Positions 572 through 61,157 of a stretch of 64,000 nt of DNA are shown piece after piece. Each line of letters starts with the position of its first letter. Within the stretch, counting starts at the first letter, position 1. The notes beneath the pieces are model-generated. The model did no database searches, was not told where the DNA came from, and saw only the letters and a list, made by a program, of their open reading frames with translations. The DNA lies in contig JABANN010000048.1 in assembly GCA_013115125.1 (NCBI GenBank), positions 1 to 64,000 on the forward strand, in the 5' to 3' direction. The translations under genes were made by a program, and so were the position numbers. The DNA is from Perkinsus olseni. Its lineage: Eukaryota.

Positions 572-3500
572 ATGCAAGTCGAACACAGTGGCACTCTCAT
601 CGCCGGTAAAAACTGGCTCGGCAAGCTCACGGCCATGAGTTGGAGCCCACGGGCTGACAGAATGGCAGTCGTTGGGATGGATGGCAAAGTACTTCGACTG
701 TCGAAGTTCGACATCTACCGCTTACCCAGGCAACGTTGACCATAGTTCGTAGGTTCACTTGATTAACGAACTAGGCGAGCTGAGAGACAGTTTTCCAACC
801 AAGCCGCAGGACAAGGAGAATCCAAGGTTCGTATCTGGGGAGTAGCTTGATGGTGAACGAGGAGGTTTGCAGGTATATGATAACGAGCATGAGCTTCTCA
901 CCAGACGGCGCTCGTGTAGCTGTTGGTCAGAGTGACTGTATCGTATACGTGTATAAAATTGGAACCACCTGGGGAGACAAAAAGAGCATTTGCAACAAGT
1001 GGCCCCAGACGTCGGCAGTGACGTGCTTGACCTGGCCGTCGTCCCAACCTACACAACTGGTTCTGGGACTGGCTGATGGCCGTTTAAGAGTGGCTAACTG
1101 CCGAACTCAAAAATGCGCAAATCTTTATCACAGCCAGGCTTCGGTCGTATCCCTATGCCAGAGTCCCGATGGTTACAGCGTCGTTGCTGCGCATTCTGAT
1201 GGAAGCCTGTTTCGCTTCACATTCGAATCCGCAGTCACTGGTGCCCCCCAGATATCCCAGCTAGCAAAACCTTCTAGTATCTGCTCAGTAACGTCAGTTT
1301 CGTGGGGGTTATGTGCACTGGTGGTGGTGGGGACAGACCACCTTGTGAGGTTCTTCGATTGCGATAATGGACGTGAGACCGGAGCTTTCGATTACTCCGG
1401 CCATCCGTCGCTGGGAAGAGGTGAGAAATTGAGTTCACGAGAATCTCCTGGCCCGTCACCTCAGGCCAGCTTGGATGTTGTGCTTTTAACCCTCCTGGGG
1501 ATACTCTCGCTGTCGGCGGACTGGGGACTGTTGCACTATTTAGTTGCAATCTTAACTCACAGGAATGGTCCGAGGTAGTGCAATGCTGTAACGACGGGGC
1601 ATCGCTACGGATCGCATCGTTCCCTTTGGGTTTCCGTCATTGGCCCTGTGCCCGAGCTGCATTCCCTCACCTGCCTAGCCTGGAGACCAGATGGTGCGAA
1701 ATTATATGTTGGGAATGTCGCCGGGGAGTTGGATCAGTTCGATATATGCTGGAAGAGAATACTGTAGGGTTGCGTCAATCGTATTTCGGCGCCCTTCGTG
1801 CGCTACCCAGTTACCGTGGTGAGTGGGAACTGCTCTACACCTCACCTTCTCAAGTGACTGTCAAGAGGATCAGTGTTGCTGGTAGAGGACTCAATGGAGT
1901 GAAATCGGAGTCCGGGGCATAGCTACTCAGATAACAGCGCACAGTCTTCCACTGCTATAGTATTCAAAAGTACCGCCGGGGACGAGATAACGAAGGTTGA
2001 TATACACAATGTATGCGAGTGCTCTGCCGGGCCCGAAACTGGGTGGGGACTGGGCGAGATTTTAGGACCAATTCATCGTAGCGTTTACCCGAGATACCCT
2101 ACTCCTGGGTAACATGGACTCGAACAAGCTCTCAGAGGTAAGCACCTTGCGAAGACGCTTTCTTTGGCCATAATTGAACACTCTTTTCGAGGTTCCGTGG
2201 AGCAATCATACTCGTACCAAATTCTTCTTCGATAACCCAGATGCAGTTATGGCGTTCAAATCTGGAGAGTTGCTCCTTATTGGTAATGAAGTTTCTCTGT
2301 GCGCTTCGCTCTCTGTGCCTTTCTGTCACTCTTGTTTAGAGTACGGCGAGGACGATGTCATGGGGTGTGCTCGAACAGAGTACGTTTCACCTCATCTGAT
2401 AAGCTATCGGTCTGTTCCTGCTCATCTGACCTCGTCATCTCATTCCTGGCATACTCATAGTAAGATGCTTTGAGGCAATGTCGCATCCCGGAACGACCTT
2501 TGGCGAATTCACGTCTCAGATCTGCGGACTCTTGGCGAAACTGCTTCTGACAGTGGCTTGTCTGGGAAGGACCATCACGACAAAATGATGGTCATGGCGT
2601 TCTTGTTCGATGCCAACACCATTCGAGTTAACGATGTCCGTCAAGCTAAGTCTTTAGCAACAATTGAACACGACTGCAAAGTGGGCTAGACACCCTTGGG
2701 ATGTCGAGGAAGATGTTTCTCCAGGTCGATTGGCTATCGCTCAACCCTGGCACCGCCCATAGACTACTCTTCCGCGACAAACGACATAGGCTGTATCTGT
2801 ACGATCTGCAACAACAGCAAAAGACCGCACTCTTGTGAGTAAACCACAGATCTTTAACAATAACAATTTGCCGTCCCAGGCCTTACTGCAATTATGTGAA
2901 CTGGGTCCCAGACTCGGACGTTGTTGTGGCGCAATCAAGAGACGAGCTCTGCGTATGGTGAGACTATGAGCACTGAGTCATTATCAAACGTCGTGTGCAG
3001 TTTGGATGCATCAGGTACTCGATAGCTACTCTGGATAGGATAACCAAGCATATAATAAAGGGGGATATCGAGGATATAATCCGTGCCAATGGACGAACCG
3101 TCGTGCTCGTCGACGAATCTCCGAGCAACCAAGTGGAAATGCCTTCTCATTCTTGCTGCTTTCAGTACGCTGAGCAGGTTGAGTATGAGCTGGACGAAGC
3201 TCTGATCAACTTCTCTGCTTCTCTGGAGCGAGGCCATTTTGCTATGGCTGTCGATGTCTTGGAATATCTTCCGCTTGGGCCAGAAACCACTGGTATGACT
3301 TTGAAACTGCCCCCGTCCGCTCCAGTTGCTGCAGGTATGTGGCGTCAGCTCGGCTCTGTTGCTCTGGATGCTATGTGTCTACCTGTGGCGGAGCGGTGCT
3401 ACGCGGTCCTAGGAGAAGTTGAAGTCAGCAGGTTCGGCAACCGAACCGTGTTCTGTAGGCGCTGGAAACTCTCTTCTACAGGGAGCTGCGGAAAGTTCAG

Positions 3501-8801: not shown

Positions 8802-10631
8802 TCAGAAACACATGCTCTCAGAAACAAATCTAGGAGTATCACTCTTTTTCATCATACTCATCAGAGCCCGCTTTTGTTCGACGAGCGGTAAGCGTGAGAT
8901 CCGGCGGATATCGTCCTCTACCAATGTAAATACCTTCCACCCATGGCTCTCCAAGTAGCGGACCTTCCAGTTCGTCGCACCATCAGGAAACTTGTGTCCA
9001 GAATCACCGAGAAACTCGATGTAGTGGTGACTTCCATTTACCTCGACAGCTAGTTTCTCGTCCGGTTTGGCAATATCGACGACAACTCCTGGAACCACTG
9101 CGTATTCATGGCACCACTCGGAACCAAGTATGAGGCACACCTTTGCATGGAGGGCACTGCTCGAAAGCACTCTGGCTCCGGGATCACTTGCTATGGGCTC
9201 CTGTAGAGTGAGGCTCGCCTGATAGAGTTGAGCTCGATGAGCTCGTTCGTACGGATTTATTCTCGTTGCAAGCTGGCGTGCAAACAGAATATCCGTACAC
9301 CCACACATAGCAAATAGAGACCAGAGTGTGATAGCGGCTTCCTTTGACGTGAACTCCTCAACTGGTTGTTGACGAAGGACAGCATAGAGGACAGGGACGA
9401 CTTCACCAGCCCCACGGCCGTCGAACACAGCGATCGCCCACAGAATGCGAACCGAATTACCAACATCCTTCAGTAGCTCGGCATGCCACTTGACCACCCA
9501 TTGATAGAGGCGACTCATCACGTTGGAAGGGAAGCACGAGGCACATGCACATGCCCAGAGGAAGAAAGACATCTCTCGGGGGGGAGAGTCAACACTTAGC
9601 ACCTCTGCGAGACTCCGAAGCTGTGCCGTCACTTTCAACACTGACATTGTCGAAGCCGCTTGTCCGAGAGCGAAGGCATACGACGCACGATCCTGCTCGT
9701 TTATCATCTGCATCGATATACCGGAAAGTCTTTCCGGAGATACGGCCCAGGCTATGGTCGATGGGTCCCCACTATGGACGAGCGCCCATATTGCCATAAT
9801 AGCATCCCTCGCGTTCGGCTCAGTCCACTCTCGACGAACAGTGGGCACAAGTGTGTCGAGTTCAGGTCTCCATTCACCAGCAGACTTCACCACAGCCCAA
9901 AGGACATGCACGGCCTCTCTCAGCTTCAGATCCTTTCTTTTACAGCAAGTATCAACCACCTGCGATGGCAGAGATAAGCCCGCCTTAGCCAATCCGGACA
10001 ACCCCATAGCAATGTCTCGCGCTGCCACGGAGCTCCAATCGATATGGCCCTCAGAGAGCACTCTGTTGAGAGTGGCCAAGTTGTCTGTAGAGAGCGCAAG
10101 CCTTCCCACAGCCCAGAGTAGCATTCCAACGTCTTTTGATGACAGAGCCTCCACATTCGACAACGCCTTGGCGATTGCGGTATGGTACAGCTGCAGCACC
10201 GATCGAGTCAGTCCTCGATTCACAGCATTTTCCGGGTTCGCTGCACAAGAGGCGATACTCCACGACAGACTGCAAATATCCTGACATTCTACCGCCTGTG
10301 ACGCAAGAGGAATCAGCCTGTCGAACACAGTGTGATTTGGCGAGACCCCAAGCTTGAGCAGGAGGAATATAGCCTGAGCAGCCAGCGACGCGTTTAGCGG
10401 CTTCTCAGGCGTTCCACTGGTGACCAAGGCTCCCATCAGTTTATCAAGATCCTTGGCTGCGAGAGACGGCCTCTCACCTCTGCTCACGTCTCTACTAACA
10501 CATTTATCAATTTGTCGCAATGTCATTATACAGTACATAGGCGTGTGAGCTTTCTTCCAGCCCGGGACATTGAAAGGTCGCAGTAATCCTTCGACTGTCT
10601 TCCCGCCTCCGCGCAGCGAGCGATTCAACAT
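8802..10631 (-). CDS. Helical-repeat (OPR/HPR-like) RNA-binding protein with C-terminal RAP domain; intronless
   Basis: 609-aa ORF. C-terminal VDIAKPDEKLAVEVNGSHHY...DGATNWKVRYLESHGWKVF is a RAP-domain pattern. LW(A/S) motifs recur at roughly 35-39 aa spacing (LLWAVGRL, VLWAVVKS, AIWALVHS, FLWACACA, ILWAIAVF, TLWSLFAM). Confidence 0.85.
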   Translation of the reverse strand: MLNRSLRGGGKTVEGLLRPFNVPGWKKAHTPMYCIMTLRQIDKCVSRDVSRGERPSLAAKDLDKLMGALVTSGTPEKPLNASLAAQAIFLLLKLGVSPNHTVFDRLIPLASQAVECQDICSLSWSIASCAANPENAVNRGLTRSVLQLYHTAIAKALSNVEALSSKDVGMLLWAVGRLALSTDNLATLNRVLSEGHIDWSSVAARDIAMGLSGLAKAGLSLPSQVVDTCCKRKDLKLREAVHVLWAVVKSAGEWRPELDTLVPTVRREWTEPNARDAIMAIWALVHSGDPSTIAWAVSPERLSGISMQMINEQDRASYAFALGQAASTMSVLKVTAQLRSLAEVLSVDSPPREMSFFLWACACASCFPSNVMSRLYQWVVKWHAELLKDVGNSVRILWAIAVFDGRGAGEVVPVLYAVLRQQPVEEFTSKEAAITLWSLFAMCGCTDILFARQLATRINPYERAHRAQLYQASLTLQEPIASDPGARVLSSSALHAKVCLILGSEWCHEYAVVPGVVVDIAKPDEKLAVEVNGSHHYIEFLGDSGHKFPDGATNWKVRYLESHGWKVFTLVEDDIRRISRLPLVEQKRALMSMMKKSDTPRFVSESMCF

Positions 10632-11193
10632 CTGTAGCTAACTCTGGCTGAACGATAAAAGTCAAGTGCAAACACTCTATTTAGCCAGCTGAACACAACG
10701 AGGGAGTCCTCAACGGAAGCTAAGTCCAAAATGTGTACGAGTATTGTTACAATTACCAATTGTTGCAACACTACTGTACTGCGGCAGGATTTAAACAAGC
10801 GGATGTGTCCCAAGTGAGCCAAGCTCAAGAGATCAGAGTAGCCGGCTCTCCACCGACGTCACGCTGCCTGATGATACAGGCTACATCCAAGCCGAGAAGC
10901 CAGGAGTCAGGAATTTGGGATCAAATACGCAAGTAATATGAGGTAGTGATCAACGAAGCTGAGGGTTAGGTTCTACTCAGCAGGCCACTGTATCGCCGAC
11001 CTTCACCCGTGGCTACAGTGATATCAAATATATAATCGAACCACATTGTATGACGAACCACGAGTGTGACTCTATATGGACGGCGTTAGACGATGGAATA
11101 ATGACAAGTTGACGAGAGGCAGCTTCGGTGTAGCTTTCGTACTCGAAACAAGCGGCGGACTGGAGATGTTGCAGGGTGCTCAGCTCAGCTGAG

Positions 11194-15190: not shown

Positions 15191-16606
15191 TCAATCCGAA
15201 GCATCCAGAACAAAGAGCGCACAGGAGAGCGATGTATAGAATGCCTTCGCACTATCGTCATTACTCGAAGACACCGCATTACGTCTCGGATATCCGTCGC
15301 AGGACGACGAGGACTCCCTTTCTGAGTGGATGGTTGTAGCATACGAATCCGTCGAAGGAACCCGGCGCCACCACAGATACGAGTCACCCTGCTGCTCCCG
15401 GTGCAGGTCGGCATCAATTCCGCGGAATCGACAAATATCATGATGATACCCGCCACAATCTCGAACCGAAATATAAGAGCCACTATGACGGCTTGGAGTA
15501 GTACCCAATCTCTGGCTGAAGCATGCGTGGGCCTTGACTTCCCCAGAATAACAGCCTGCGCAATCAACGCAGTCGGTAGAAGGAGTCGGAGCCTGTACCG
15601 GGTGGTTGAGCGAGCTGGGCGAAGAATCCTCTGCAGGCTTCGGGCCGACCTCCGGACAACTGCTTGGCCCACTATCCGAGGCAAGGCCAGGCCGATAGAT
15701 ATCAACGTCTGCATGGATCGGACTTATTGATGACCCGAAGCGCTTCGGAATTGCCGCTGAACGGCAATTGCAAGATGTTCCCAAATTAGCATCCACAGTG
15801 GTGGCTTCCGAGACAACAGAGTCACACCTCCCGTATTTCTCTCCCCCAGCAACCGTCGGAGATAAAGGAGTGCAGCTTTCCGGTGCAATCGCATCGTCGC
15901 GTACTTGCGGAGCAGAAGCTGGTACCGGTTCCCGCAAATCACACGGCGCGTCCATCGGAGACCTCCACTCTCTTCCCAGTAACCGATTCGCCGCAACCCT
16001 CAACTTGGCTTTCGACCTCCCCGAAGTTGCTGTCTTGCCTCCCGTTACACTACTATGCATTCGGGAAGGATCCTCACTAGCTTGCCCTGATACGGTAACA
16101 GGTCTCAACTCTGACTCCGCATGAGCATAGGCACATCCCTTTCTAGTGCAGTTAGGCAAGAAAGGGCACATTTTCGTGCAGTGGAAGTCGGGCTTCGGCT
16201 TCAGCTCCTCCGGGGAATGTGCAAACTTGCACTGGTCTCCCCGTTCGCAAATCTGCTTCTCGAAGAACGAACACATTCTTGTCTTGTACAACCTGGGCTT
16301 CAATCCGCCGCCTTCTGTATGCCCCGAAGGTTCGGACGAAGAGTGAGTAGAAGGGCAGCGTTCGTCCAAGACACGAGCTTTATCAGGCCTACATTCACTG
16401 CCTGCAACATTACCGATCTGCTCCTTGCATGAGCCTTTCCGAAGGGGAGTTGCTCCCTTTCTGGCAGTGTCATGATATTTAGCGGAACAAGAGACGCCGG
16501 GTCGTGGCGATAATTGGGGAAGCCGTGTGGGCATGAGACAAACGGGAAGGATACCTTTCGCGGTAACGTTCGGCCGTGACGCGACCCGCGCACATGCAAC
16601 TTGCAC
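15191..16606 (-). CDS. Tandem CCCH zinc-finger RNA-binding protein (ZFP36/TTP-like fingers)
   Basis: LYKTRMCSFFEKQICERGDQCKFAHSPEELK and CTKMCPFLPNCTRKGCAYAHAESELR within a 471-aa ORF. The true start codon is uncertain. Confidence 0.85.
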   Translation of the reverse strand: MQVACARVASRPNVTAKGILPVCLMPTRLPQLSPRPGVSCSAKYHDTARKGATPLRKGSCKEQIGNVAGSECRPDKARVLDERCPSTHSSSEPSGHTEGGGLKPRLYKTRMCSFFEKQICERGDQCKFAHSPEELKPKPDFHCTKMCPFLPNCTRKGCAYAHAESELRPVTVSGQASEDPSRMHSSVTGGKTATSGRSKAKLRVAANRLLGREWRSPMDAPCDLREPVPASAPQVRDDAIAPESCTPLSPTVAGGEKYGRCDSVVSEATTVDANLGTSCNCRSAAIPKRFGSSISPIHADVDIYRPGLASDSGPSSCPEVGPKPAEDSSPSSLNHPVQAPTPSTDCVDCAGCYSGEVKAHACFSQRLGTTPSRHSGSYISVRDCGGYHHDICRFRGIDADLHREQQGDSYLWWRRVPSTDSYATTIHSERESSSSCDGYPRRNAVSSSNDDSAKAFYTSLSCALFVLDASD

Positions 16607-16799
16607 AACAGCGCAAGATTCACCCGGGATGTTTCTTTGCGTTGAGCCAAGATTCTCGGCCCGTGAACTCCATCCCTATTCATTGCAAGAGACCGGCAAC
16701 AAGGCTTTTTGTGTCCCTAGGCGAGTCCCAGACTTGAATAGGAGAGCTCTACCGACTCGTGAGTCGTCAGTTATTACTTGGAAACCCTTCTCTACATCG

Positions 16800-47275: not shown

Positions 47276-48844
47276 TCAACTCCCAGGATGCAGAATGTCG
47301 GTATAGATGATACCGTAGAGGCAGATAGGCACCAGTGCAAGACCAATCACGAAGATGACAGCAGATAGGTACCAAGTAACCCGCCCCTCCTCCTCAATGT
47401 TCTTTCGGGTTAGCATACAGTAAAGGTAACATGGCATGATGAAACTCGTACAATCACCACCGATAAGGCCAAGCAGCGAGAAGGTAACGCCCAGAGACTT
47501 CACGAAAATGGCCACCACAAGGCTAATTAGCACTATACCTACAGTGAGAATAATCCTCAACTTCAACTCTGCTGCGGGTTTAAGCTCCTTCCCCCGAGTT
47601 AACAGAACTGTGAGGGATCTCCGACAGGGAAAAACTTGCAATGGGAAGGAGCAGACTTCCGATACTGCGAGAGCCAAGTATCCAATCTGTACTGGAATAT
47701 AGTTAACGCTAAGATTTTGTAAACTAAGAGCTTCGACGTTATAGCCAAAAGTTATATAAGGAAATACCATTGCAGGTATGAAAATAACGATGGCTGTGGC
47801 GATAGCGGCAGTGGAAACGATATCCACGCGCAACTGGGTTCGATTCTTAAGATCATCAGTAACAAGGAACGCATTCATATGGCATCCGAAGGACATGATA
47901 ATAATCGGCAAAACACCCATGACTGTCCAGAAGTTAGCAGGCGGCCATACCCTCGTGTTCTCTTCAGCCCTAGAGCAATCACTGTAAACAATTCCTAGGA
48001 TGACAACATAAACCAGACTGAGAAGGCCGACCATGTTAACAATGGCCGTATTGCCTGCTGATCTCCAGAAACATACTGGTGACACGATCGCTACACATAT
48101 CAAAATCAGAATCGCTCGTGTAGCAAAGGAGCCGATGGTATCAGGTATAATCGGAATCCAACGGGCTATAAGGGGTTCGAGCATGTTACCAACAACTTGT
48201 AAATAAACTATACATACTCCAATGCTTGTGATGACTAGAATAGTATCCACTATCCACCTCGAACGTGGAGAACACGCTTGTGAAATAACGAAGAAGCTCA
48301 TTGGCCTCACTTCAAGCTTCAGAGCACACCGATTCAGCAGGTGAAGGGTGAACAAAGATGCCAAACCACTGATGAGTATGGCCAGTAAACCAATAACCCA
48401 GCCGCATCTCGATACAGAGTAGGCAAGACCAAGCATACCAACGCCAATCATAGTCTTCGATAGCACCGTCCAGAGAGAAAGAATAGTCCCACTTGGTTCC
48501 AGAACGGACCCCTCCGCTCCTGTCCTATCTTCGGAAGAATCCAAGATTTTACTCTTGCCGTCAGAAATGGTGGCCGCGGTGACATCCTCAGTGGATAATG
48601 TAGGGTGTTTTATACCACCGATAGTTGCAACCCGGCTGGACCTCCTCGTAAGACCTCCGCTAGTCGCCAGACTAGCTGCAGCTGATGAGTGCCTCGAAGA
48701 TGCAGGCGATCCTGATGTCGCTGATGTGGTTGAAGACGCAGCAGTCGGGAAATCCATAACACTGTCTGCTGCTGTTACGGCACCGAACATGGCCGATCCG
48801 ACGCTCGGATGCCGGGGAGCTGTCTCGTGGGTTGCCCCATTCAT
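47276..48844 (-). CDS. Amino acid/auxin permease (AAAP, Aa_trans; SLC38/Avt-like) transporter; intronless
   Basis: 522-aa ORF with about 11 hydrophobic segments. Family motifs LSKTMIGVGMLGLAY...GWVIG, LPIIIMSFGCHMN and SFPLQVFPCR. Confidence 0.92.
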   Translation of the reverse strand: MNGATHETAPRHPSVGSAMFGAVTAADSVMDFPTAASSTTSATSGSPASSRHSSAAASLATSGGLTRRSSRVATIGGIKHPTLSTEDVTAATISDGKSKILDSSEDRTGAEGSVLEPSGTILSLWTVLSKTMIGVGMLGLAYSVSRCGWVIGLLAILISGLASLFTLHLLNRCALKLEVRPMSFFVISQACSPRSRWIVDTILVITSIGVCIVYLQVVGNMLEPLIARWIPIIPDTIGSFATRAILILICVAIVSPVCFWRSAGNTAIVNMVGLLSLVYVVILGIVYSDCSRAEENTRVWPPANFWTVMGVLPIIIMSFGCHMNAFLVTDDLKNRTQLRVDIVSTAAIATAIVIFIPAMVFPYITFGYNVEALSLQNLSVNYIPVQIGYLALAVSEVCSFPLQVFPCRRSLTVLLTRGKELKPAAELKLRIILTVGIVLISLVVAIFVKSLGVTFSLLGLIGGDCTSFIMPCYLYCMLTRKNIEEEGRVTWYLSAVIFVIGLALVPICLYGIIYTDILHPGS

Positions 48845-48975
48845 TAAGACTCAAGTTCCCAAACGGAGATATAAATCCTTGCAACAACATGAACAATGAA
48901 GTTGAATCCCTTCGAAGCGAGAAAGCTCCCACTCTCGCAACGCAGTATCATGATACCCGTCAGAAATAATTACGC

Positions 48976-51096: not shown

Positions 51097-51411
51097 TAGT
51101 TGCCAGAAAATGGCGAGTCGGTAGTCTGACGGAGGGGGAACAGCTACTAGTGTGTTGTTTACATTTTGAGAAGCTTCTCTATCGTGGCATCATTCTCTAC
51201 CCCACACGAGTTACCTCTTTGAATCCTGTGCAGCCCACCCGTATCCCTGGGATGCCGCTTAGTCCTCAAGATGGCTCTAGGAGGTTGAACATCGATTCAA
51301 TCGGCGTGCGCAGAGCGGAAGATCTGAAACCGTCAAGAGCTAGAAACCCCGAGCCCGATGGTGCGTCAAACTATCTCGCTTAGTTGTCAATAATTGAAGA
51401 CGGCGTAAATC

Positions 51412-51705
51412 ATGCCGAAGGGTAATTCGTCCCGCTCTGGTGGAAGCAACAATGGTGGAGGTTCCCGCGGTGGAAATGGGGGCTCGGCTACTAGAAGCAG
51501 TGGTGGTTCTTCGAGGGGAGGTGGCAACAATGATTCCTACGGTCCAAGCTGGCTTAACAGCAACGGCACTGTCGATCCCGTTGAGTTCGCCCGCACTGAG
51601 GTCGGCTATGTCGCTCCTGGGCATGACCACTTCGATGAGAAGTTCAACCAAGCCTGTGCCCAATACGGATTCAAGCCTTGGGAGATGTGGGGTGGCGGTC
51701 AGTAG
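51412..51705 (+). CDS. Small protein (97 aa): Gly/Ser-rich N-terminus plus conserved ~50-aa C-terminal domain (paralog 1)
   Basis: Clean ATG-to-stop ORF. C-terminus GPSWLNSNGTVDPVEFARTEVGY...CAQYGFKPWEMW is colinear with the next ORF. Confidence 0.75.
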   Translation: MPKGNSSRSGGSNNGGGSRGGNGGSATRSSGGSSRGGGNNDSYGPSWLNSNGTVDPVEFARTEVGYVAPGHDHFDEKFNQACAQYGFKPWEMWGGGQ

Positions 51706-52108
51706 ATACTCCACCTCTGAGGATCCCGTCACGCTATTATCTCGGTCGGTGAAGATCGGTGAACGAAGAAAATTAGTATAGGTAGAGTCTGATCGCTACA
51801 TCTTTTTCCACATATTTCCTCTATGATTGTTGGATCCTCAAATTCATTAGTCTATCATTTGAGTCTCGATCAATGTGTGTTGCGTTACCACTAGTTTGCG
51901 ACGCCCCTGCGGAGTCCATAGACGTAGCAGTGTGTGGTATTGTGTGGAATAGTTGATGAGCGAGTTAGAGCGACAGCTGCGATGTGTGTTAAGCTGTTGG
52001 TTCATCTAGCGGCTCCTGCATGGTGGACAGGCTTAGTGTTGCGAATCTTGCGGATGATGCGTAGTGAGATAAAGTGCCTCGTACAGCTTCCTTTCTTTAA
52101 TTCTGTCC

Positions 52109-52459
52109 ATGCCTGGGGACAACAGCAGCGCTCAGAAGAGCGACGCCCATCAGAGGAACGGCGAAGCGAGTGGTACGGCTGCATCCGACAATAACACCAG
52201 CGATCACCATGAATGCAGCGTGTGCCATAACAGCGAGCCTATCGACAAGGTGAGCAAGGACGGCATGAGGGTCACCAGGGTTGGCGAAGCTCCGGCCAAT
52301 GAGAATGGTCCTAGCTGGCTCAAAGAGGACGGTACTGTGGACCCCATTGAGTTTGCATTAGCTGAGGTCGGATATCTTGATTTCGAAGATGACAACTTCC
52401 AGGATGACTTTGCCTATCATTGCGCTATGTACGGATTCAAACCGTGGGATATGTGGTAA
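52109..52459 (+). CDS. Small protein (116 aa) with CxxC motif and the same C-terminal domain (paralog 2)
   Basis: Clean ORF. HHECSVCH motif, then GPSWLKEDGTVDPIEFALAEVGY...CAMYGFKPWDMW*. Confidence 0.75.
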   Translation: MPGDNSSAQKSDAHQRNGEASGTAASDNNTSDHHECSVCHNSEPIDKVSKDGMRVTRVGEAPANENGPSWLKEDGTVDPIEFALAEVGYLDFEDDNFQDDFAYHCAMYGFKPWDMW

Positions 52460-52763
52460 TTGTTGCATATCGATATTGATTGATCTGGCTCTGTCGTACT
52501 AGTAAATCGATTTTAATCTTGATCCCTGAAGACTTGTGTTTGTACGGTTATAAACAGCGGACTCGCCCCCGCCAGCGTTGACGCGAGCGGAGGAGCGATT
52601 ACCCGCAGCGCGTGCGAGCTGGCACGTACTTCTACGATTAACTACGCTCAAATGATAGTAGTGGCTGTGTTGTCTTGCCCGCAGGCTTTTCTGTAGTCTT
52701 CCGGTCTCGAGTCGATTGATGTGACCGTAGCCTGGGTCTCACACTGGCGCGCAGTTTTTTACC

Positions 52764-55700
52764 ATGAACCTACGCGCTGCAACTCACAGTTTCAATGACT
52801 GGTTCCGTAACGCGGCAACAATCCATGGAAGTACCACCGCGGCGGTAGAGATGAATGAGATCGGAGAAATAGTGAGAAGAGTACGAACAGGTTTTTTGCG
52901 TTCACAATTTCGGCTGGCTGTTTCCTATCCTAAAGAACTCAGGTAACGTATTCCGATCTCTACAAGACTGCTTGTGAATGCGGCGAAGTGATAAGTCAGA
53001 AGCTGGAATCACAGCGCTCGCCGCGGTGTCGTGTTGATGTTCGAGACGTTCCACGTTGGACGGTGGCTCTCAACATACCAAGAGGAATCGATTGGTATAC
53101 CATGTAAGCCTTTGTATTTCGAAATCGGGCTTGCGAAGGAGCCTCGCATTGTATAGATACTTAGCCTGTTTACTAGCTGGTATACCTACAGTCAGTCTCA
53201 CTAGCGGCGGAAGAGAAGTGCCGGCTGATCAGGAGACTTCCAGGGCGCTACTACTGGCTCAGAGCCTGTTGACGCCGCCGTGTTTACTGATCGGCGGAGA
53301 ATGTGCTCTCGACTGTCCAAGGGTCGACGTTGAAGACATACTTTCATCTGTCGGCCGTGAGACCTCCAATGAGGGATCCCTCCTGCACCGGGCTTTTAGG
53401 GATGGAGAGACCGTCGCGTATCATTTCACAGGAGGTAGGTATACAGCTGTTGGCTATGGTCGGGCTCCGGGACCGTTCTCGGCATCAGTTCGGGCGTAAA
53501 TATCAAAAGAAACTGTGTACAGGTACAACTTCTTCCAGTAAATGTGTTCGTATCACTCTGGGAATGATCATGCACGAACTCGACAAATATGCCGATGTCA
53601 TTCCGAGGGCCTGGAAAGGAGTTGGCCGTGCCGCTGTGATTCATTCAAGTGAGAGTTGAAGCCTCCCTTCTTAGTCGAGCATCACTGGCGCTCTCTGTCA
53701 GGCAGTGTCTACTGGGCGGCTAGCTGCTATGGGCAAGTGGACATATGCTTAGCGTTCTATGGGACCCTAGTAATGCAGACAGCGAAGTTCGCTATACCAC
53801 GAGTGTTTTGCTCAGATCCTCCCTGCGGCCCCGCCTACTGGTAGCAAGCGATGTTCTATGGATGCGACGGAAGTGCCTTATCGTCTCATGAGAGATGCGA
53901 TGACTTCGGGCCGGTTTGATACTGTCATCGCCGGCCTTGTACCCACTCTTATGGACGCGATGCCTTCCCCTGAGACAGACTGGTGGACAAGAGGAGGAAC
54001 CATACGGGAGAAGAAACTCGTAAGTTTAAGCAGCCGGTGACTCCTGTCGAGCGTCAGTCACAAGTTTTCTGTGTAGTTGGTGTTCACCTGGGGCGAAGCT
54101 TGTCCTCAGTCTGTGGTCGACAAATGGGCTAGAGCAACGATAATCGAGTTATTGGTGGCCACCGAGTAGGTCACTGATAGAAACTACTGTGCATCTGTTT
54201 CACACAGGTATTGGCTGTCACTCTACTGCGTGCGATCCACCAGCACCCGGGGAGACCCCGCACCAGTACAGTACAGCATTGTTTCGGGGTGCACCGTTAG
54301 CGCCAAGCGGTTGAGGCCGGGCGGGGATGCGGGCATGATGATCATGAGCGGTAGAATGGTGACCCCTGGGTATGTCACCGGGACCAGTTTACTTGGGGGC
54401 AACGAGATGCCTTCAAAAATCGCCGATGCTACTGAGCACACCGCTACATTCGAGACGGAGGATGTCGTCCGGCTTGTTACGCGTGCAGATAATTCCTATC
54501 GTTTGGTCGAGTGTTTGGGCCGCGAAGGAGATCTCGTCAAAGTAGGTGGAGCGTTTGCAAGAATCCCTGCCCTAGAAGATGCGATAGGGCAGCATTTCGG
54601 GAGTGGGACGAAGGTGATTATTGTGGTGGGGCACGAGGTCCCTGGTGGTGAGATCCATGTGGTAGTTCGAGTGGGGCGGGAATGCCGTCTTGGCGTACCG
54701 GGAGCAATGGCAGCTATCCGGGGTGTTCTGCCGGGACTACCAACGAGGTGTATCCATATCTTCGTTCCCGGTGCGTGGATTCCTACGAATGCGGTGACTG
54801 GGAAGGTCATGAAAGGTGAACTGTTGTCAACTGTTATTCCCCGACCACCTCCTCTGCGATTAGCGGACGATGCCCTCTTGGAGGATGCCCCTTATCGCGA
54901 GCAGTATGAGCTCGGTGGTAGCCTCTTACCCAAATCCGTGGCGAGGTCTAAGAAGGCACTATACGTTGGCGTGCCCATGCATGTTGTCCTAGTGTCAGTG
55001 ATCTCCATACTGGCAAGCCTCTGTTGGAATAACATTGGCCTTGCTCGATTCTCTCTTGGGCTGGTTGCAGCGTTGATGGTTTACTATCCGTTGCTGGATT
55101 ATGTCGCCATCGCTATGCAGTCAGACACGTCGCCAGCTTTCGGATCCTCTATTGATACGAAGGATTGCCTGGAGCGTATGGCACTGAGCTGGGCTGAGGT
55201 TTGTACTTCGGTTCTACTTTGGCTCGAGAGTACGATCCCCTATGGCGAATATCTCTTTAAAACCTCGTTCGCTGCGGTACTTGCTCACATGCGCTGGGGC
55301 ACCCAGATATTCCTACTCATCATCGTTTTGATGAGTTTCACGTGGAGGCATCTCCTTTTCTGGCCCACTATCAGCTCTATCGAGGCAGGGGTCTACCTCT
55401 GTCACAATTGGCGATGGAACAACTGGCGGCCGTATCTTCGCAATCCGCTCCGGCTCGGGTGTTGGTATATTTGTTGTGCTTCATCTTGGCTCGGTAAGCG
55501 ATCTCTACGCTTGTCAAGAATAGATAAGGTCGTCGCCGAAAGCAGACTCGCCAATTATGCTACCGTGCCAAGGCCCGCGGGCCGAGGCAGGCGGCGGGGT
55601 GGTTCCCCCCGCAAGAAGGAACGCTGGTACCAGTGCGATGTCCGGAAGTGCTGCAGAACCAAAGATAATCGAGAATGCTGGTTTCGAGAGAGCCACGGCC

Positions 55701-58240
55701 GATGGGAATGGGTAGAGACAGATAATACACGATGGAAGACAAAGTGCGATGCCAGCATCAAGCTTGAGTAATGACGATTCTCCATTCAGGTGTTCGGAAG
55801 TCGCCGACCCTTCTGCAGCAAAGGAGGGACTGGGAAGGACGGGCATTCACAGTACATGGAAGGGCAGTCGATATCAGTGAGTCACGCCCATCTCTGTGAA
55901 CTGTCTCACGTATCCTCCGCAAGGTTTGTTTGCGAGTCCTGCCTCTGGGACAAGCTTCAGCATGTGGACGTTAAGCCGGCTGGTGGGGACTCTCGACCTC
56001 CAGTGAGACGCCCACCAAGGACCGCGAACCAGTCCACTGAAGCCGTGAATAAGGACACAGCTGCTTCTGATGTTGAAGGTCACATCGTGTCCATGCTTGC
56101 AAGTCTTGGCGGAGAGTGTCCCTATGTCGACGAACAGTCTAGGGGTAGGATGCTCGCTGGATTGTCCTCCCTAAGTGTGGTGCTACTGAGCAGCAAAATC
56201 GCTCAGAAGTGGAATATTAAGGTGAGTCGCCTCTCCGGATGCGCATACTGACGTCTTATCGACACTCCGTTCAGCTGAGTCCCCGAGAAGTAATGGCCTT
56301 CACCACCCTGGGCGACTTAACAAACGAGGTTCGGAAGAGAATTGATGAAGTAGAAGCCGTATCCAATACGTCTAGGGAAACTACGAACTCCTACTCTGGT
56401 CGTCCTCCGGAATATCGCATCAATATGTTCGCAACCCATCTCTGGAAGAGAGCTCCGTGCGATTGGCTCTTCGAATACACTGATTCCGACCACCCCATGA
56501 CGGTCACTGACATCAAAAAAGCTCTGCACATCCTCGTGGATAGGTAAAAGCAATGACTATGAAATTGACTTCTGACGAGTTCTCAGTTCTTCATGCTCAG
56601 GCACACAGTATTCCGCTCCTATCCTCTGGACCCACTAGAACTGCAGGACTGCTGTAAGGAGGTTTTGAGTCTATCATCCGCAGCGGGGATCGAGTCGGCA
56701 TGGGTGCGCAGAGCAGTAGAGGCTTGCTGGCCGAAAGTTGGGCCCCGTAAGGGGCATTCCGGCTCTTCCGTGCCGATCCACACCAAGTGGGTTACACTGG
56801 GGGCAGCAGTTCGCTCAGACACGCCCAATAGGTCTTTCACGAGTTCCAAGTCCGAATCGAGGGCGTCAAAATCCCTCCGAGAATTGGTGGTCCGTCTGAA
56901 GCACACTGAGGCCTTCATGGCTCCTATTGAGTTCCATATCCTCTTGCCGCGAGGTGTGGACAAACGGAAGGAAGGTTAGATCGATGTATACTAGCTCCGC
57001 AAGCAATACAACGGCGTCGTCTTCTCAGCATTTCGGTGGTTTTACGTCTACGTTCGACTCACACATCTGTTCGCGGATGGGTTCTGTGTGGCACCGATGG
57101 CTAAGGAGCTGGACCACGCTTTCAAGCAAGTTACTAGAGGAGAGGTATTGTTCCGGCCAATTTGGTTGTATAGAAGGTCATCACCAGAGTTGTGCAGGTG
57201 TCTCCGGTTGCTGCGTGTGGCTTTCCTACACTACACCATCGCCTCTCAAGTGCCATCCGTGGGAATGAGGCCTTCATTCGTCTCAGACAGGCGATGGAGA
57301 TCCGACGCCCAAGTGCTGATAACAGAACTCGTAAGACGGACAACTCGAGAGCTTATTCGGGGTGTTCCCTAGAACACAGGCACTCTGTGGCTGAGCCGGG
57401 GTACGACTCGCGGCTTGGCCGCTATTGCAAAGGAGCTCCAGGTCCCTACGGAGATCGTCATACTGGCAGTTGTTTTGATAAGTCTTGGTCGGGCATTGGA
57501 GTGGGACTGCATACCATTGAGCCTTATGCGAGCTAATCGGGATGAAGATGCAGTGAGAACACATCAACAGCCTACTTTAAGCCCTTCATTGCATTGTTTA
57601 GGACCAATCACGAATGTTCGGCTTTTTTGCCGAGTATGCAGATCTTGGTTTAATCCCGTGCGATTACAACACCTCACTCTTCGGCGTCATAGCGCAGCTG
57701 CAGGGGCGGATTCAGGAGAACGTTAACAACACAACGGGTCCTCGCCTTTATTCGACATCGTTGGGGGATCGGCCGTGGACCAGAAAGTAACTCTCCTTGC
57801 TTCGAGCGAACATCCCACAGCAGAGGCCATGAGCGGGTTTCACCTTCTTAGATGCTTTCCTATAACAGTGAATCTGATAACCAGTCTGCCACAGATGGAC
57901 GACCTCTGCGTTAGACACGTGTCGTCATACGATCGCATCGAGCGAAATGGCGAAGCTGATGGCCGTGGGATGCGGCCGATCCATCTCTACATCGAGGAAT
58001 CGCGTTATGTGTACGTCTCGGCGCTGATCTCTGCCAGAATGCGTATCTGATGTTCCTGTTACTCGCAGGTCAACCAGCGATACGGACTGGGGCATTCGGA
58101 TGATGCTCGATTGGGAGTGGTTCCCTTGCTCGTGGCTCGTTAAATACGTTGACAGAGATCTACCAGCTGTAATTCAGCAGCTTTTCGAACGGAGGGCACA
58201 TCGCCAATGGGCGAACGAATACTTCCAAACGAGAGAGTGA
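52764..58240 (+). CDS. Single-module NRPS-like enzyme: adenylation - TM/Cys-rich insert - carrier (T) - condensation; spliced
   Basis: A-domain motifs: TYSDL, AYHFTGGTTSSSKCV (split by an intron ending 53522), TWGEAC, SGRMVTPGY, FETEDV, CLGREGDLVKVGG, TGKV. T-like LAGLSSLSVVLLSSKIAQKWNIKLSPREVMAFTTLGDL. C domain: KALHILVDRHTVFRS, RLTHLFADGFC (57061-57081), IAKELQVPTEIVILAVV...ANR. Confidence 0.8.
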
Positions 58241-61157
58241 ATTGAATGAAGATGGTGCTTGTGTGTGGCTTATGTTTCTATGGCCGTTTTCTGACGATTT
58301 CCGTGTATGAGTTTTATTCGGAGTTTGCGATCCCATGCACTCGGTCCTTCGAGGCTTTGATCTTTCTATGAACGGCAGAAGACCGAAGGCGATAGCAGAG
58401 GCAATCACGGCCCTGCCAGTTCCCAGCAACTGGCTCGGAGTGGGAGCCCAGAGGAATCAGGTGTGCGTTTTAATGATGGCGTTGAGCGGAAGCCAACTCA
58501 GATACGGTTTGTAGCCCGGCATCTGCGACGTCATTTCCGCGAAGGCCCCCAGAGCCTGAGCGAAACCTCCCTACGGTGCATTGGTATAGTTCCCACAGCG
58601 CAGGCTATACGGGTGAGTTTGCGATAGCGATTGTCGGGTTGACAGTTCTCTTCTTAGGCTCCCGCCAGAGTCAACAGCAAACTGGTTCGGGTTCCTGCTG
58701 AAGCTGACTATTTGTTAGGAGTGACGCCGATTAGGGACCTCCAATACCATACAAGAGATCAAGTGCAGAAGGTGTGAATCCATGCATTGAATCCAGACAC
58801 TTCACACGGCTGTTATTGTTCCTAGGCTATGGGTCATGGCTCGATTCCAGGAACGAACGATCCATCTCTGAGGATATACCATTTGCTTCCAATAGCTTTC
58901 CCAGCCAGTGAATCAGTAAGCTGCATCGGCGTTATGATGTCCGAATAATGTGGTTTCAAGCTCTGGACCGCACCTGATCCGTTGGTCACCGACGTGATCA
59001 AGGTGTCGCGGTCGACTGAGCCCCATCGACTGGGAACCTTAATCTACAATCGCTGCAGAGACGGCGAAGAGGATATCACAGTGCACGCTAGAGGTGACAT
59101 AGCACTTGCGATGGCCGTCAGGTATGACAACCGCAGCAGGGCATATTGAGATTCTCCGTTCCTGGTTCAGGGGCATCGCGAAAGCGACAGCTAAGTTGGT
59201 ATCCTTTGAAGCCAAACGACTAGTCGCGATTCCAATCTCATTCGAACCGAAATCATTCCAAGAATTACAAATCTCCATCCGATGCGTCGATCTCTCTCCC
59301 TCCGAGACGGGAAAGATACAGTCCCCGAAGTTGTTGGATATCTTGTTCGAAGCTTCCGAAGTGGAGGATGATGTTTCTGACCTTCCCACTCCGAAATCAT
59401 GATGAGTTAGGATTATGTTTCCGATCAATTCGCTGTCGAGGTGTTTTAAATAGATGGTTTCATCACGACTGTGACGCCGGAAACCAGTATTGAACTGATC
59501 CTTATTTATCCACGCAAAGCAGCTGAGAACAGAAGTTAGAAATCGTCAAGCTCATCGAGCATTCCGTAGATCGTATCGGCGCCAGCTGTTCCTGCGATGA
59601 GAAGCTCGTCGCTTTCGGGAGGCCTGACGATACAAAGCACTTGAGGGATGAGTCCGGTCGAAAACGCGTATGATATAAATTTAGATCACTCCAGACGAAA
59701 AAAGCGCATGAGCAATGAAGGCGTCCATCTCACTTTTCATCCTCCACAGAGTGTGCCCTTGGCCAACACTCATCGTAGCACGGAACATCGATCTCTTGGC
59801 TTGCGCACTGACCGTTCAGCAACGACAAGTCGGCGGGATCTTCTACACCGCCATCGGAGTCTCGTACTCGGGAACCTGACCGGACCCGCATGAATCTTAT
59901 CTCAGGCTGCGATCCCACGTTTTGTTTCTGGTTGCTGTGCATCTTTCATCCATTCATCGAAGACTCTCTGTGACACTTCCCTTCCTCCAAGGGTAGTATG
60001 TACCACTTTGACGCCTCTCGCTTCTACTGGGAGAGATATGGTTGAGCCCTCTGCACAAGCGACCAACTGACGGAGACGTGAGGCAGCTCCCGCTCGCTCG
60101 TGGAGTGTCCTCACAGAATCCGGAAGTACTACTGTGTACTGTATAGTAACAGTCTTCGGCACCACCGAGTTGCGGAGCCAGCTTCGATAGGATTCCAGTA
60201 AGTGGCACGAGTCGAGCAGGACGGAGTTGCATAATGGCCACCGCTTGGACATCTTCTGCAGTTGCTTCCAAACGAAAACAGCATGATGGCGACGCCAGTT
60301 CGACAAAGGTGGCTCGTAGGCTAACATGATCTCGTCAAATGCGACCTTCTCGGACTTGCCTGCATTGGGATTCTTTGCGTCTTTATCGAGACAGGCCCGG
60401 TTGAGAATCGCCCTCTCTGAGAGGTTCAGAACCACTCCGGTGATCTTGTCGGCTGCTATGGTCTTATTGAGCTGGAATGACTTGCCGCTCAATGGTGGCC
60501 CACAGGTGCAGTAGACTGTCCTTGGGGAGCCCAACGATGTAGAGCCGACTTCGAATGGAGGAATCGATTTAGCGTCCAGCTTCGAAACTCTACAGTCGCG
60601 AAGGGCGACGAAGGGGACCCAAATGCAGTTTTTCGTGAGCTGCCATGTGGGTATCGGTATCGCCTGTGGGTTGTCCAGACCTTCGAACCAGACCTTAGAG
60701 TCTTTCAAACTGAGCTCAGCACTGATGGTAGTTGGATCATGCGTACGCACGCCACCGGAAGGTTTCGACCAGAGCACAATCAGGGGATCAGTGTTAGACG
60801 ATTTGCCAAGCCGGCCAGTTCGATAGTCGATACACAAGATGCAGGAAGTGGCATTCGTTGTACTATGCGGTACAGCGGCGAAGCCGGCTATGGCACCGCT
60901 CCGTGCCTCGGGGCTGGGATGGACTTCGACGCTGTAACGAAACCTGAAGGAAAGCTCAGACTGATAGTTCTCTCAAGCGGTCGTAATGAATCTTACTTTC
61001 CAGAGCGCTCAGTAGATCGAACACCCCAACTGCCGAGTGCCACTCCCCAGATCGAAAAGCCAAACCCGATCGACTCCCTACACTGCAGTGAATCATTTTC
61101 TATCTCCACCCAAGGATCGCTCCATTCTCTCGAAAAATACGGCCGATCGGACGTCAT
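58160..61157 (-). CDS. hnRNP U-like SPRY plus P-loop (AAA_33-type) protein with unrecognised spliced C-terminal extension
   Basis: FSIWGVALGSWGVRSTERSGKFRYSVEV resembles the hnRNP-U SPRY start. IWVPFVALRDC, Walker A CGPPLSGKS and Walker-B-like VLLDSC follow. The stop at 59902 lies inside a plausible ~43-nt GT-AG intron, so the gene probably continues towards ~58.2 kb (uncertain). Confidence 0.55.

Follow-up and report, generated by a model that had tools for sequence, protein, structure and literature searches.

A transcribed, intron-rich Perkinsus olseni gene for a probable single-module, membrane-built NRPS-like enzyme ending in a condensation-type domain

The DNA analysed here is a stretch of 64,000 nucleotides (nt) from Perkinsus olseni (GenBank assembly GCA_013115125.1, contig JABANN010000048.1, positions 1 to 64,000 of the forward strand), which we call the window and to which all positions refer. 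At 52764-58240 a first-pass annotation had proposed an intron-hidden relative of the nonribosomal peptide synthetases (NRPSs), in the unusual order adenylation (A), transmembrane (TM), carrier or thiolation (T) and condensation (C). We read this locus as one expressed gene for a single-module, membrane-built NRPS-like enzyme, and put the probability of that reading at about 0.62. The proposed A-(TM)-T-C order was upheld, its TM part as predicted from hydropathy, and a cysteine-rich segment can now be added between the TM region and the T domain. The protein thus described would be a divergent A-T-C enzyme in which a membrane and zinc-ribbon insert separates A from T; it has been found so far in perkinsids and in two other eukaryote lineages. 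The coordinates of the exons, domains and motifs are collected in Table 1.

Reading and translating the sequence of the plus strand places the start codon (ATG) at 52764 and the stop codon at 58238-58240. The splicing model joins 19 exons across 18 introns, all of them with GT..AG ends and between 42 and 88 nt in size, into a coding sequence (CDS) of 4500 nt that holds no internal stop and gives a product of 1499 amino acids (aa). The first-pass annotation had joined about a dozen fragments into one protein; the single protein stands, whereas the number of fragments was too low. The positions it had given for the start, the stop, the serine codon of GLSSL and the THLFADG motif were exact. When the 14 stop-to-stop open reading frames (ORFs) of the unspliced locus were scanned against Pfam, none matched AMP-binding, PP-binding or Condensation at E<=1, and the gene is therefore hidden unless it is spliced. 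A tblastn search of the window with four family proteins found one copy only, the gene at 52764-58240.

Table 1. Positions of the exons, predicted domains and sequence motifs of the NRPS-like gene
Feature	Positions	Strand	Evidence or remark
Exons 1-5	52764-52880, 52943-53103, 53157-53434, 53523-53648, 53702-53769	+	Spliced contigs, open frame
Exons 6-10	53816-54019, 54077-54165, 54208-55743, 55790-55876, 55924-56221	+	Spliced contigs, open frame
Exons 11-15	56275-56543, 56601-56786, 56832-56974, 57029-57144, 57198-57330	+	Spliced contigs, open frame
Exons 16-19	57380-57552, 57602-57786, 57852-58010, 58069-58240	+	Spliced contigs, open frame; exons 17-19 also by identity to P0011
Adenylation (ANL) domain, aa 1 to ~575, exons 1-8	52764-54889	+	PF00501, PDB profile, local HMM, Foldseek
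A3 P-loop FTGGTTSSSK, split by intron 3 (53435-53522)	53425-53542	+	Aligns to ftsGsTG.pKgV of PDB A domains
A4 region SVYWAAS	53704-53724	+	Trp at the Asp position of FDxS
A10 catalytic-type lysine, Lys547 of TGK	54803-54805	+	Equals K199 of exon 8; invariant
Hydrophobic, predicted membrane-spanning region, aa 601-733	54965-55363	+	Hydropathy
Cys-rich segment, aa 824-895, WYQCDVRKCC...C...H ... FVCESCLW	55634-55942	+	Cys/His positions; contains introns 8 and 9
Carrier (thiolation) domain, aa ~930-1010, split by intron 10 (56222-56274)	56045-56340	+	PF00550, model, Foldseek
Ser971 of GLSSL, predicted phosphopantetheine attachment site	56168-56170	+	Invariant Ser-Leu
C-terminal condensation-type domain, aa ~1020-1499, exons 11-19	56368-58237	+	hhalign, Foldseek, VIA-align
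THLFADG, C3 motif	57061-57081	+	His1200, Asp1204 and Gly1205 kept; first His of HHxxxDG is Thr

The model was tested against transcripts by aligning contigs of four (X1, X15, X2 and X9) of the listed public runs X1 to X21 to positions 52400-58600. Overlapping spliced contigs cover 52533-58285 with the frame open and bear out the single transcript that had been claimed. Thirteen of the 18 introns are among the listed contig joints; eight of these occur in all four runs and none in fewer than three. Introns 1-3, 17 and 18 were deduced from the lengths of contig pieces, and the last two are further backed by a public protein (P0011, see below) whose aa 616-1254 are 100% identical to aa 861-1499 of the model. 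A contig of 3958 nt from X1 covers 53554-58285, from the adenylation domain to 45 nt beyond the stop, and is matched by an equivalent contig of 3968 nt from X15. Towards the start of the gene, an 849-nt contig from X1 opens with 52533-52880 and continues through a piece of 161 nt, which corresponds to exon 2, into exon 3 and the beginning of exon 4; a 961-nt contig from X2 bridges exon 3 to exon 6 and joins the two X1 contigs. The 3' ends of the transcript contigs lie at 58285 and 58295.

Two further joints were considered and set aside. An intron of 297 nt (55494-55790), which would remove the basic and Cys-rich stretch, was rejected because the contigs read through it and splice out 55744-55789 instead. 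A joint from 53363 to 55793, with CT..TG ends (side 20) and present in one high-depth X1 contig, was taken as a chimeric or repeat artefact. That contig (depth 218) differs from the window at 53328 and 53332, carries a 1-nt insertion and then jumps to 55793; it is probably a chimera, or reflects a short repeat common to a more abundant transcript.

The transcript data also bear on the idea that the locus holds two or more genes, or one gene in decay, and that the long frame is an artefact of splicing. We consider this extremely unlikely. The spliced contigs overlap along the gene with joints that recur between runs, 1499 codons are free of stops, the 61% identity to the P. chesapeaki orthologue extends over aa 1-1470, and distant relatives keep the domain order in one chain; what such a reading has in its favour is that no single contig covers the 4500 nt and that the P. 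olseni entries in the public record, of 931 aa and 1254 aa, are incomplete.

Relatives were collected with HMMER: the 511 aa of exon 8, scanned against 1.84 billion representative proteins, gave only 10 matches at E<=0.001. P0001 (P. olseni, partial, 931 aa) is 98-99% identical and represents the other P. olseni allele, whilst P0011 (P. olseni KAF4673521.1, 1254 aa), from a separate later search, is the same gene; these two P. olseni proteins bear out the perkinsid origin that had been suggested for the DNA. P0003 (P. chesapeaki, 1692 aa) is the orthologue, P0006 a P. chesapeaki paralogue, P0004 (P. marinus) a 188-aa fragment of the same gene, and P0002, from a Logan assembly, a fragment with 56-64% identity. 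P0008 (a EukProt transcript) and P0010 (with P0012 and P0014, from ENA) are distant family members. The remaining matches fall outside the family: P0005 and P0009 are bacterial NRPSs, and P0007, a YadA-type adhesin, is a stray match. Three word-indexed homologue searches found no family member beyond those of the full scan; these searches are lossy, the query made from alignment A2 having missed even P0006 and P0010. On present sequence comparisons the family thus appears very small, with three Perkinsus species, a paralogue, and so far two other eukaryote lineages. The same architecture is seen in the P. chesapeaki orthologue and paralogue, in the P. marinus and Logan fragments and in the two further lineages, and the closest relatives outside the family are bacterial NRPSs that carry PF00501, PF00550 and PF00668.

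The model of 1499 aa, supported by transcripts, is the first complete one found; the public models are partial or mis-spliced entries named 'hypothetical protein'. P0011 begins inside exon 3/4 and so lacks exons 1-3; farther on, ~50 residues of another frame stand in for the latter half of the membrane region together with the basic, Cys-rich stretch. The transcript contigs contradict P0011 at this point, as they run through exon 8 (54208-55743) uninterrupted. The public model of P0003 is a fusion with the next gene, its aa 1483-1678 matching 58574-59357 of the window.

Judged by its motifs and profile matches, the N-terminal part of 575 aa is a divergent ANL/NRPS-type adenylation domain with the core motifs in place. 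The Pfam and NCBIfam scores given here and below were measured on identical or orthologous database proteins and not on the joined product of the window. PF00501 (cut-off 29.9 bits) is passed by four of the five full-length or nearly full-length family proteins (P0003, 58.4; P0006, 47.5; P0008, 121.3; P0010, 87.3), and gave no match in P0011, which is truncated at its N-terminus. When the profile of alignment A1 was compared with the PDB, 105 sequences were found at E<=0.001, the best at 1.4e-28; the best 60 of those 105 are nearly all NRPS adenylation domains, with a few CoA ligases. A local hidden Markov model (HMM) of eight bacterial A domains matched the spliced window product at E 6.3e-8, and the reversed control had no match. 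The AlphaFold2 (AF2) model of exon 8, made from eight sequences, has a mean predicted local distance difference test score (pLDDT) of 48.1, but reaches 60-83 in the first 210 residues, and every Foldseek match of this low-confidence model is an ANL enzyme (E ~1e-7).

We take VTYSDLY to be motif A1, LLAGIPTVSL A2, FTGGTTSSSK A3, LLVATE A5, GMMIMSGRMVTPGY A6, FETED A7, GREGDLVKVGG A8 and TGK A10. In the eight-sequence alignment A3, the Asp of motif A7 (D85), the Arg of A8 (R105) and the Lys of A10 (K199; all in exon-8 numbering) are invariant. In amino-acid A domains the Asp of FDxS, in motif A4, binds the alpha-amino group of the substrate, and A domains for aryl, keto or fatty acids typically lack it. 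In both alignments inspected, 'FDvS' of the PDB A domains is aligned with 'yWaa' of the family profile. Since the amino-binding Asp thus aligns with a Trp, the substrate is probably not an alpha-amino acid.

The carrier-like domain with its Ser in GLSSL, as first proposed, is borne out by PF00550 scores above the cut-off and by four to five helices in the model. The cut-off of 20.8 bits is passed in three of five family proteins: P0011 (21.8, at aa 722-760, identical to the window product), P0006 (23.5) and P0008 (27.1). P0001, the other P. olseni allele, scores 19.1 bits, under the cut-off, and no PF00550 match was found in P0003 or P0010. The Ser-Leu of GLSSL is invariant in alignment A1, and P0008 has the canonical DSL. 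In the AF2 model of the T-C part the four to five helices of the carrier segment have a pLDDT of 50-80, and the top Foldseek matches of this model are didomains of a peptidyl carrier protein and a C domain (PCP-C).

The C-terminal domain was compared with C domains at the level of profiles and of predicted fold. A profile of alignment A2 (five sequences) was aligned by hhalign to seven C domains taken from P0005 and P0009, both of them bacterial NRPSs, giving a probability of 90.3% and a P of 1.4e-6 over 365 columns (query 19-452 of 466). The motifs fall in register, with C2 as RHxxFRS against nHpxlrT, C3 as THLFADG against HHIxxDG and C5 as MxGFF against iGmFV; the controls gave P 0.51 with the reversed C alignment and P 0.9 with eight A domains. 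Searched against the PDB, the A2 profile found weak matches (E 0.25-1.9), seven of eight being proteins of the C-domain family, and they include PapA5, an enacyloxin-type condensation domain protein, Txo1 and PCP-C didomains. In these too the RHxxxR and HHxxxDG motifs are in register, and THLFADG aligns with HHCMADG of PapA5. At the level of sequence profiles, these comparisons establish membership of the condensation superfamily.

A two-lobed C fold of the domain is likely on the evidence of modelling. The AF2 model of the T-C part, from five sequences, has a mean pLDDT of 48.9; with this low-confidence model all listed Foldseek matches are PCP-C or C-family structures (E to 9.4e-15, TM-score 0.28-0.43), and VIA-align gives Z 12.4 over 308 residues at a root-mean-square deviation (rmsd) of 6.5 Å, model residues 185-606 corresponding to the whole domain. 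The matches to starter, terminal, X and CT domains, PapA5, WS/DGAT and BAHD are tied within ~2 Z units, and no C subtype is separable by them. The first-pass annotation had called for a terminal C domain with THLFADG; this part of it gained profile-profile and fold support, although the PF00668 threshold was missed. It had also found that neither a thioesterase (TE) nor a reductase (R) follows, and indeed neither domain is present after the C domain: the protein ends with the C domain and the contigs soon after it, at the 3' ends given above.

The second His of HHxxxDG is the catalytic residue of C domains, and a catalytic-type His in an xHxxxDG motif is retained, His1200 being invariant in the five sequences. 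This bears on whether the domain is a catalyst at all. It might instead serve as a scaffold without catalysing anything, as the X domain does in glycopeptide synthetases, and leave the removal of the acyl group to a separate enzyme. The tied structural matches include X domains (6m7l at Z 12.0 and 4tx3 at Z 11.0), the first His of the motif is lost and the Pfam score is below threshold. Yet the second His, the Asp and the Gly of the motif are invariant in five members whose identity to the window protein is as low as 22-31%, and the C2 and C5 motifs are kept, so that we regard a pure scaffold as unlikely and read the domain as a probably catalytic C domain.

Between the A10 Lys and the carrier Ser lies a region for which no named family was found in Pfam, and for which the best ESM Atlas score, 0.85 to eukaryotic clusters, is within the range of chance. 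On the Kyte-Doolittle scale, 19-residue means reach 2.19 at aa 601-619, 1.81 at 633-651 and 1.89 at 715-733, with a weaker 1.14 at 673-691, and these three to four hydrophobic segments are predicted to be membrane-spanning helices. Basic stretches border the hydrophobic region, SKKALY before it and RPAGRGRRRGGSPRKK after it. All five other relatives examined have a comparable hydrophobic cluster between the A10 Lys and the carrier Ser. AF2 places long helices in the membrane region, with a pLDDT of 25-48 only.

The hydrophobic stretch could also be a buried or lipid-binding insert of a soluble protein, in which case the enzyme would be a cytosolic A-T-C enzyme with a long linker. The clusters are equally strong and in the same place in six of six sequences despite the low identity there, and three separate 19-residue windows at 1.8-2.2 fall within 135 residues and have basic flanks; on these grounds a soluble insert seems improbable to us, about as much so as the scaffold. 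It draws its support from the hydropathy scale as the sole basis of the membrane prediction, from the low pLDDT of the helices and from the want of a known membrane family in Pfam or ESM Atlas, and the same scale gives 1.98 for aa 1292-1310, a helix of the C domain that is not a membrane helix.

Downstream of the predicted membrane helices, the Cys-rich segment is a probable zinc ribbon, to judge from the spacing of its residues. The Perkinsus orthologues have the pattern C-x4-CC...C...H, followed ~60 residues on by CESC. CxxC...CxxC is aligned in P0006 and in P0010, P0012 and P0014, and a related pattern occurs in P0002 and P0003; in the alignment of family members the Cys pattern is absent from P0008.

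A number of observations count against the reading of the locus as one gene for a membrane-built NRPS-like enzyme. The whole CDS is not spanned by any one contig, and of the four runs X9 is recorded as RNA-Seq whilst X1, X15 and X2 are guessed to be RNA or are of unrecorded kind; spliced contigs from these three can hardly come from genomic DNA. TIGR01733 is the best NCBIfam model for all five proteins, yet at 19.4-103.1 bits against a cut-off of 317.4. The PF00668 cut-off (30.6 bits) is reached in none of the five family proteins: the best score is that of P0011, 16.7 bits (E 0.0032, over profile positions 219-293), P0003 has 11.2, and for the other three no match is listed. In the five-sequence alignment A2 the T, H, D and G of THLFADG are invariant, and Thr thus takes the place of the first His in five of five. 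Both AF2 models are of low confidence (48.9 and 48.1), and their fold matches have an rmsd of 5-8 Å and a TM-score of 0.3-0.4. The membrane prediction is built on a simple hydropathy scale, with a pass count of three strong segments and one weak; an odd number of passes would set A and T on opposite sides of the membrane. The neighbouring ORFs of the window, scanned with Pfam, include no family that marks a biosynthetic cluster. Finally, the activity, substrate and product considered below are inferred from sequence.

In passages of PMC10522769, single-module NRPS-like enzymes that end in a condensation domain (A-T-C) are described as a rare form beside A-T-TE and A-T-R. The window protein is like these A-T-C enzymes in having one A domain, one carrier and a terminal C-type domain with xHxxxDG, and in having no TE or R. 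It is unlike them in the ~390 residues that separate A10 from the carrier Ser and that hold the helices and the Cys-rich segment, in the failure of its A and C domains to reach the curated thresholds (TIGR01733 and PF00668), and in its gene, which is eukaryotic, intron-rich and from an alveolate. The best PDB sequence-profile match of the C domain is PapA5 (1q9j), with the motif in register at E 0.25. In the structural comparison PapA5, the enacyloxin release C domain (6cgo), the terminal C domain of AmbB and the fungal HtmB2-CT stand at Z 11.0-12.3, no more than 1.5 Z below the top; at 12-17% identity to the window protein they are statistically tied with elongation C, X, BAHD and WS/DGAT structures. 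Each of the four moves an acyl group from its carrier to a nucleophile, either free or intramolecular, and we propose the same role for the C domain of the window protein.

According to passages of PMC10522769, transmembrane helices in single-module NRPS-like enzymes have been described for one group, the epsilon-poly-lysine synthetase family, and this was the one membrane-bound layout to emerge from the literature searches. As portrayed there, the epsilon-poly-L-lysine and delta-poly-L-ornithine synthetases consist of A-T and a membrane-bound polymerisation domain, and the epsilon-poly-lysine type has a terminal domain of ~730 aa with six helices in three pairs, three repeated soluble segments and modelled left-handed beta-helices. 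Both this family and the window protein are single-module and have predicted transmembrane helices in the same chain; the window protein, which is hydrophobic in its middle, could by that token be an iterative membrane polymerase, loading one monomer repeatedly while its membrane-associated C-terminal part joins the monomers and passes the polymer outward. We think this very unlikely, less likely than either a scaffold C domain or a soluble insert. In the epsilon-poly-lysine family, as far as those passages describe it, the helices follow the carrier and the terminal domain is modelled as beta-helices, whereas in the window protein the helices come after A and before T, and it is standard C domains that its terminal domain resembles. 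That family uses diamino acids as monomers, for which the A domain has to bind an alpha-amino group, and here the Asp for this is missing, a Trp being aligned with it. No match to the hexapeptide family PF00132 was found in Pfam scans of any family member, and the two proteins that carry PF00132, P0026 and P0043, are only distant matches (E ~1e-19 and ~1e-11) to a profile that includes A and T. The layout of the window protein, with helices between A and T, thus differs from the epsilon-poly-lysine type and was not seen in described enzymes of this kind. No description of an NRPS-type enzyme from Perkinsus came up in full-text literature searches that combined the genus with NRPS terms; in passages of PMC8283056, which concerns polyketide synthase and NRPS domains of dinoflagellates, Perkinsus figures as an outgroup only.

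Among the neighbours of the gene, the nearest with a named family is an intron-free frame of 524 aa at 47276-48850 on the minus strand, ~4 kb upstream, an amino-acid transporter (Aa_trans, PF01490, E 7.7e-54); any link between this transporter and the NRPS-like enzyme would be pure speculation. Closer to the start lie two tandem small ORFs on the plus strand (51409-51705 and 52073-52459) that have the common motif GPSWL..DGTVDP.EFA..EVGY...YGFKPW.MW and no Pfam match. Over 52400-52606 the X1 contig depth is 338, against ~70 on the NRPS-like gene (~5x). Downstream, 58300-59400 on the plus strand is a separate gene with a 41-nt intron (joint 58456 to 58498), syntenic in P. chesapeaki, and its ORF pieces have no Pfam match. 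Farther off are ordinary eukaryotic genes with WD40 repeats (784-1578, plus strand), a weak RAP-domain match (8802-10637, minus strand; 22.5 bits, short of the 24.2 required) and a CCCH zinc finger (15191-16675, minus strand).

The established logic of NRPS-like enzymes suggests how the protein may work. At the expense of ATP, the A domain would adenylate a carboxylic acid, most likely one without an alpha-amino group, and this acid would be loaded as a thioester on the phosphopantetheine arm of Ser971. In the C domain, His1200 may then enable the thioester to be attacked by the free amine or hydroxyl group of another molecule, so that the product would be released as an amide or an ester and a TE or R would not be needed; an amide- or ester-forming role is thus suggested by analogy. 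The three to four helices between A and T would hold the enzyme in the membrane, and its two soluble halves would both face the cytosol. The chain is expected to cross the membrane an even number of times, because T must visit both A and C and so has to lie on the same face as they do. Such a membrane setting suggests that the donor, the acceptor or the product may be lipidic, or may be handed to the membrane. Helices in this position pose the question of how, in a chain tethered to a membrane, the carrier arm can get to both active sites.

A bolder idea, which we hold to be tentative and on balance doubtful, is that these proteins form an undescribed class of membrane-integrated NRPS-like enzymes in perkinsids and a few other protists, in which the helical bundle and the zinc ribbon would do more than anchor the protein and take an active part, offering the C domain either a lipid of the membrane or a substrate that comes from its far side. 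If this is true, ATP-driven activation of an acid in the cytosol would be coupled directly to the acylation of a membrane-bound or exported acceptor, and there would be a lipid-linked amide or ester metabolite specific to these parasites. As the same domain order is found in three Perkinsus species, in a paralogue and in two other lineages, the family is under selection, and its product is probably a specific small molecule or lipid. Oysters and clams have major parasites in the genus Perkinsus, and a parasite-specific product would be of interest for the biology of these parasites, and as a marker or a target.

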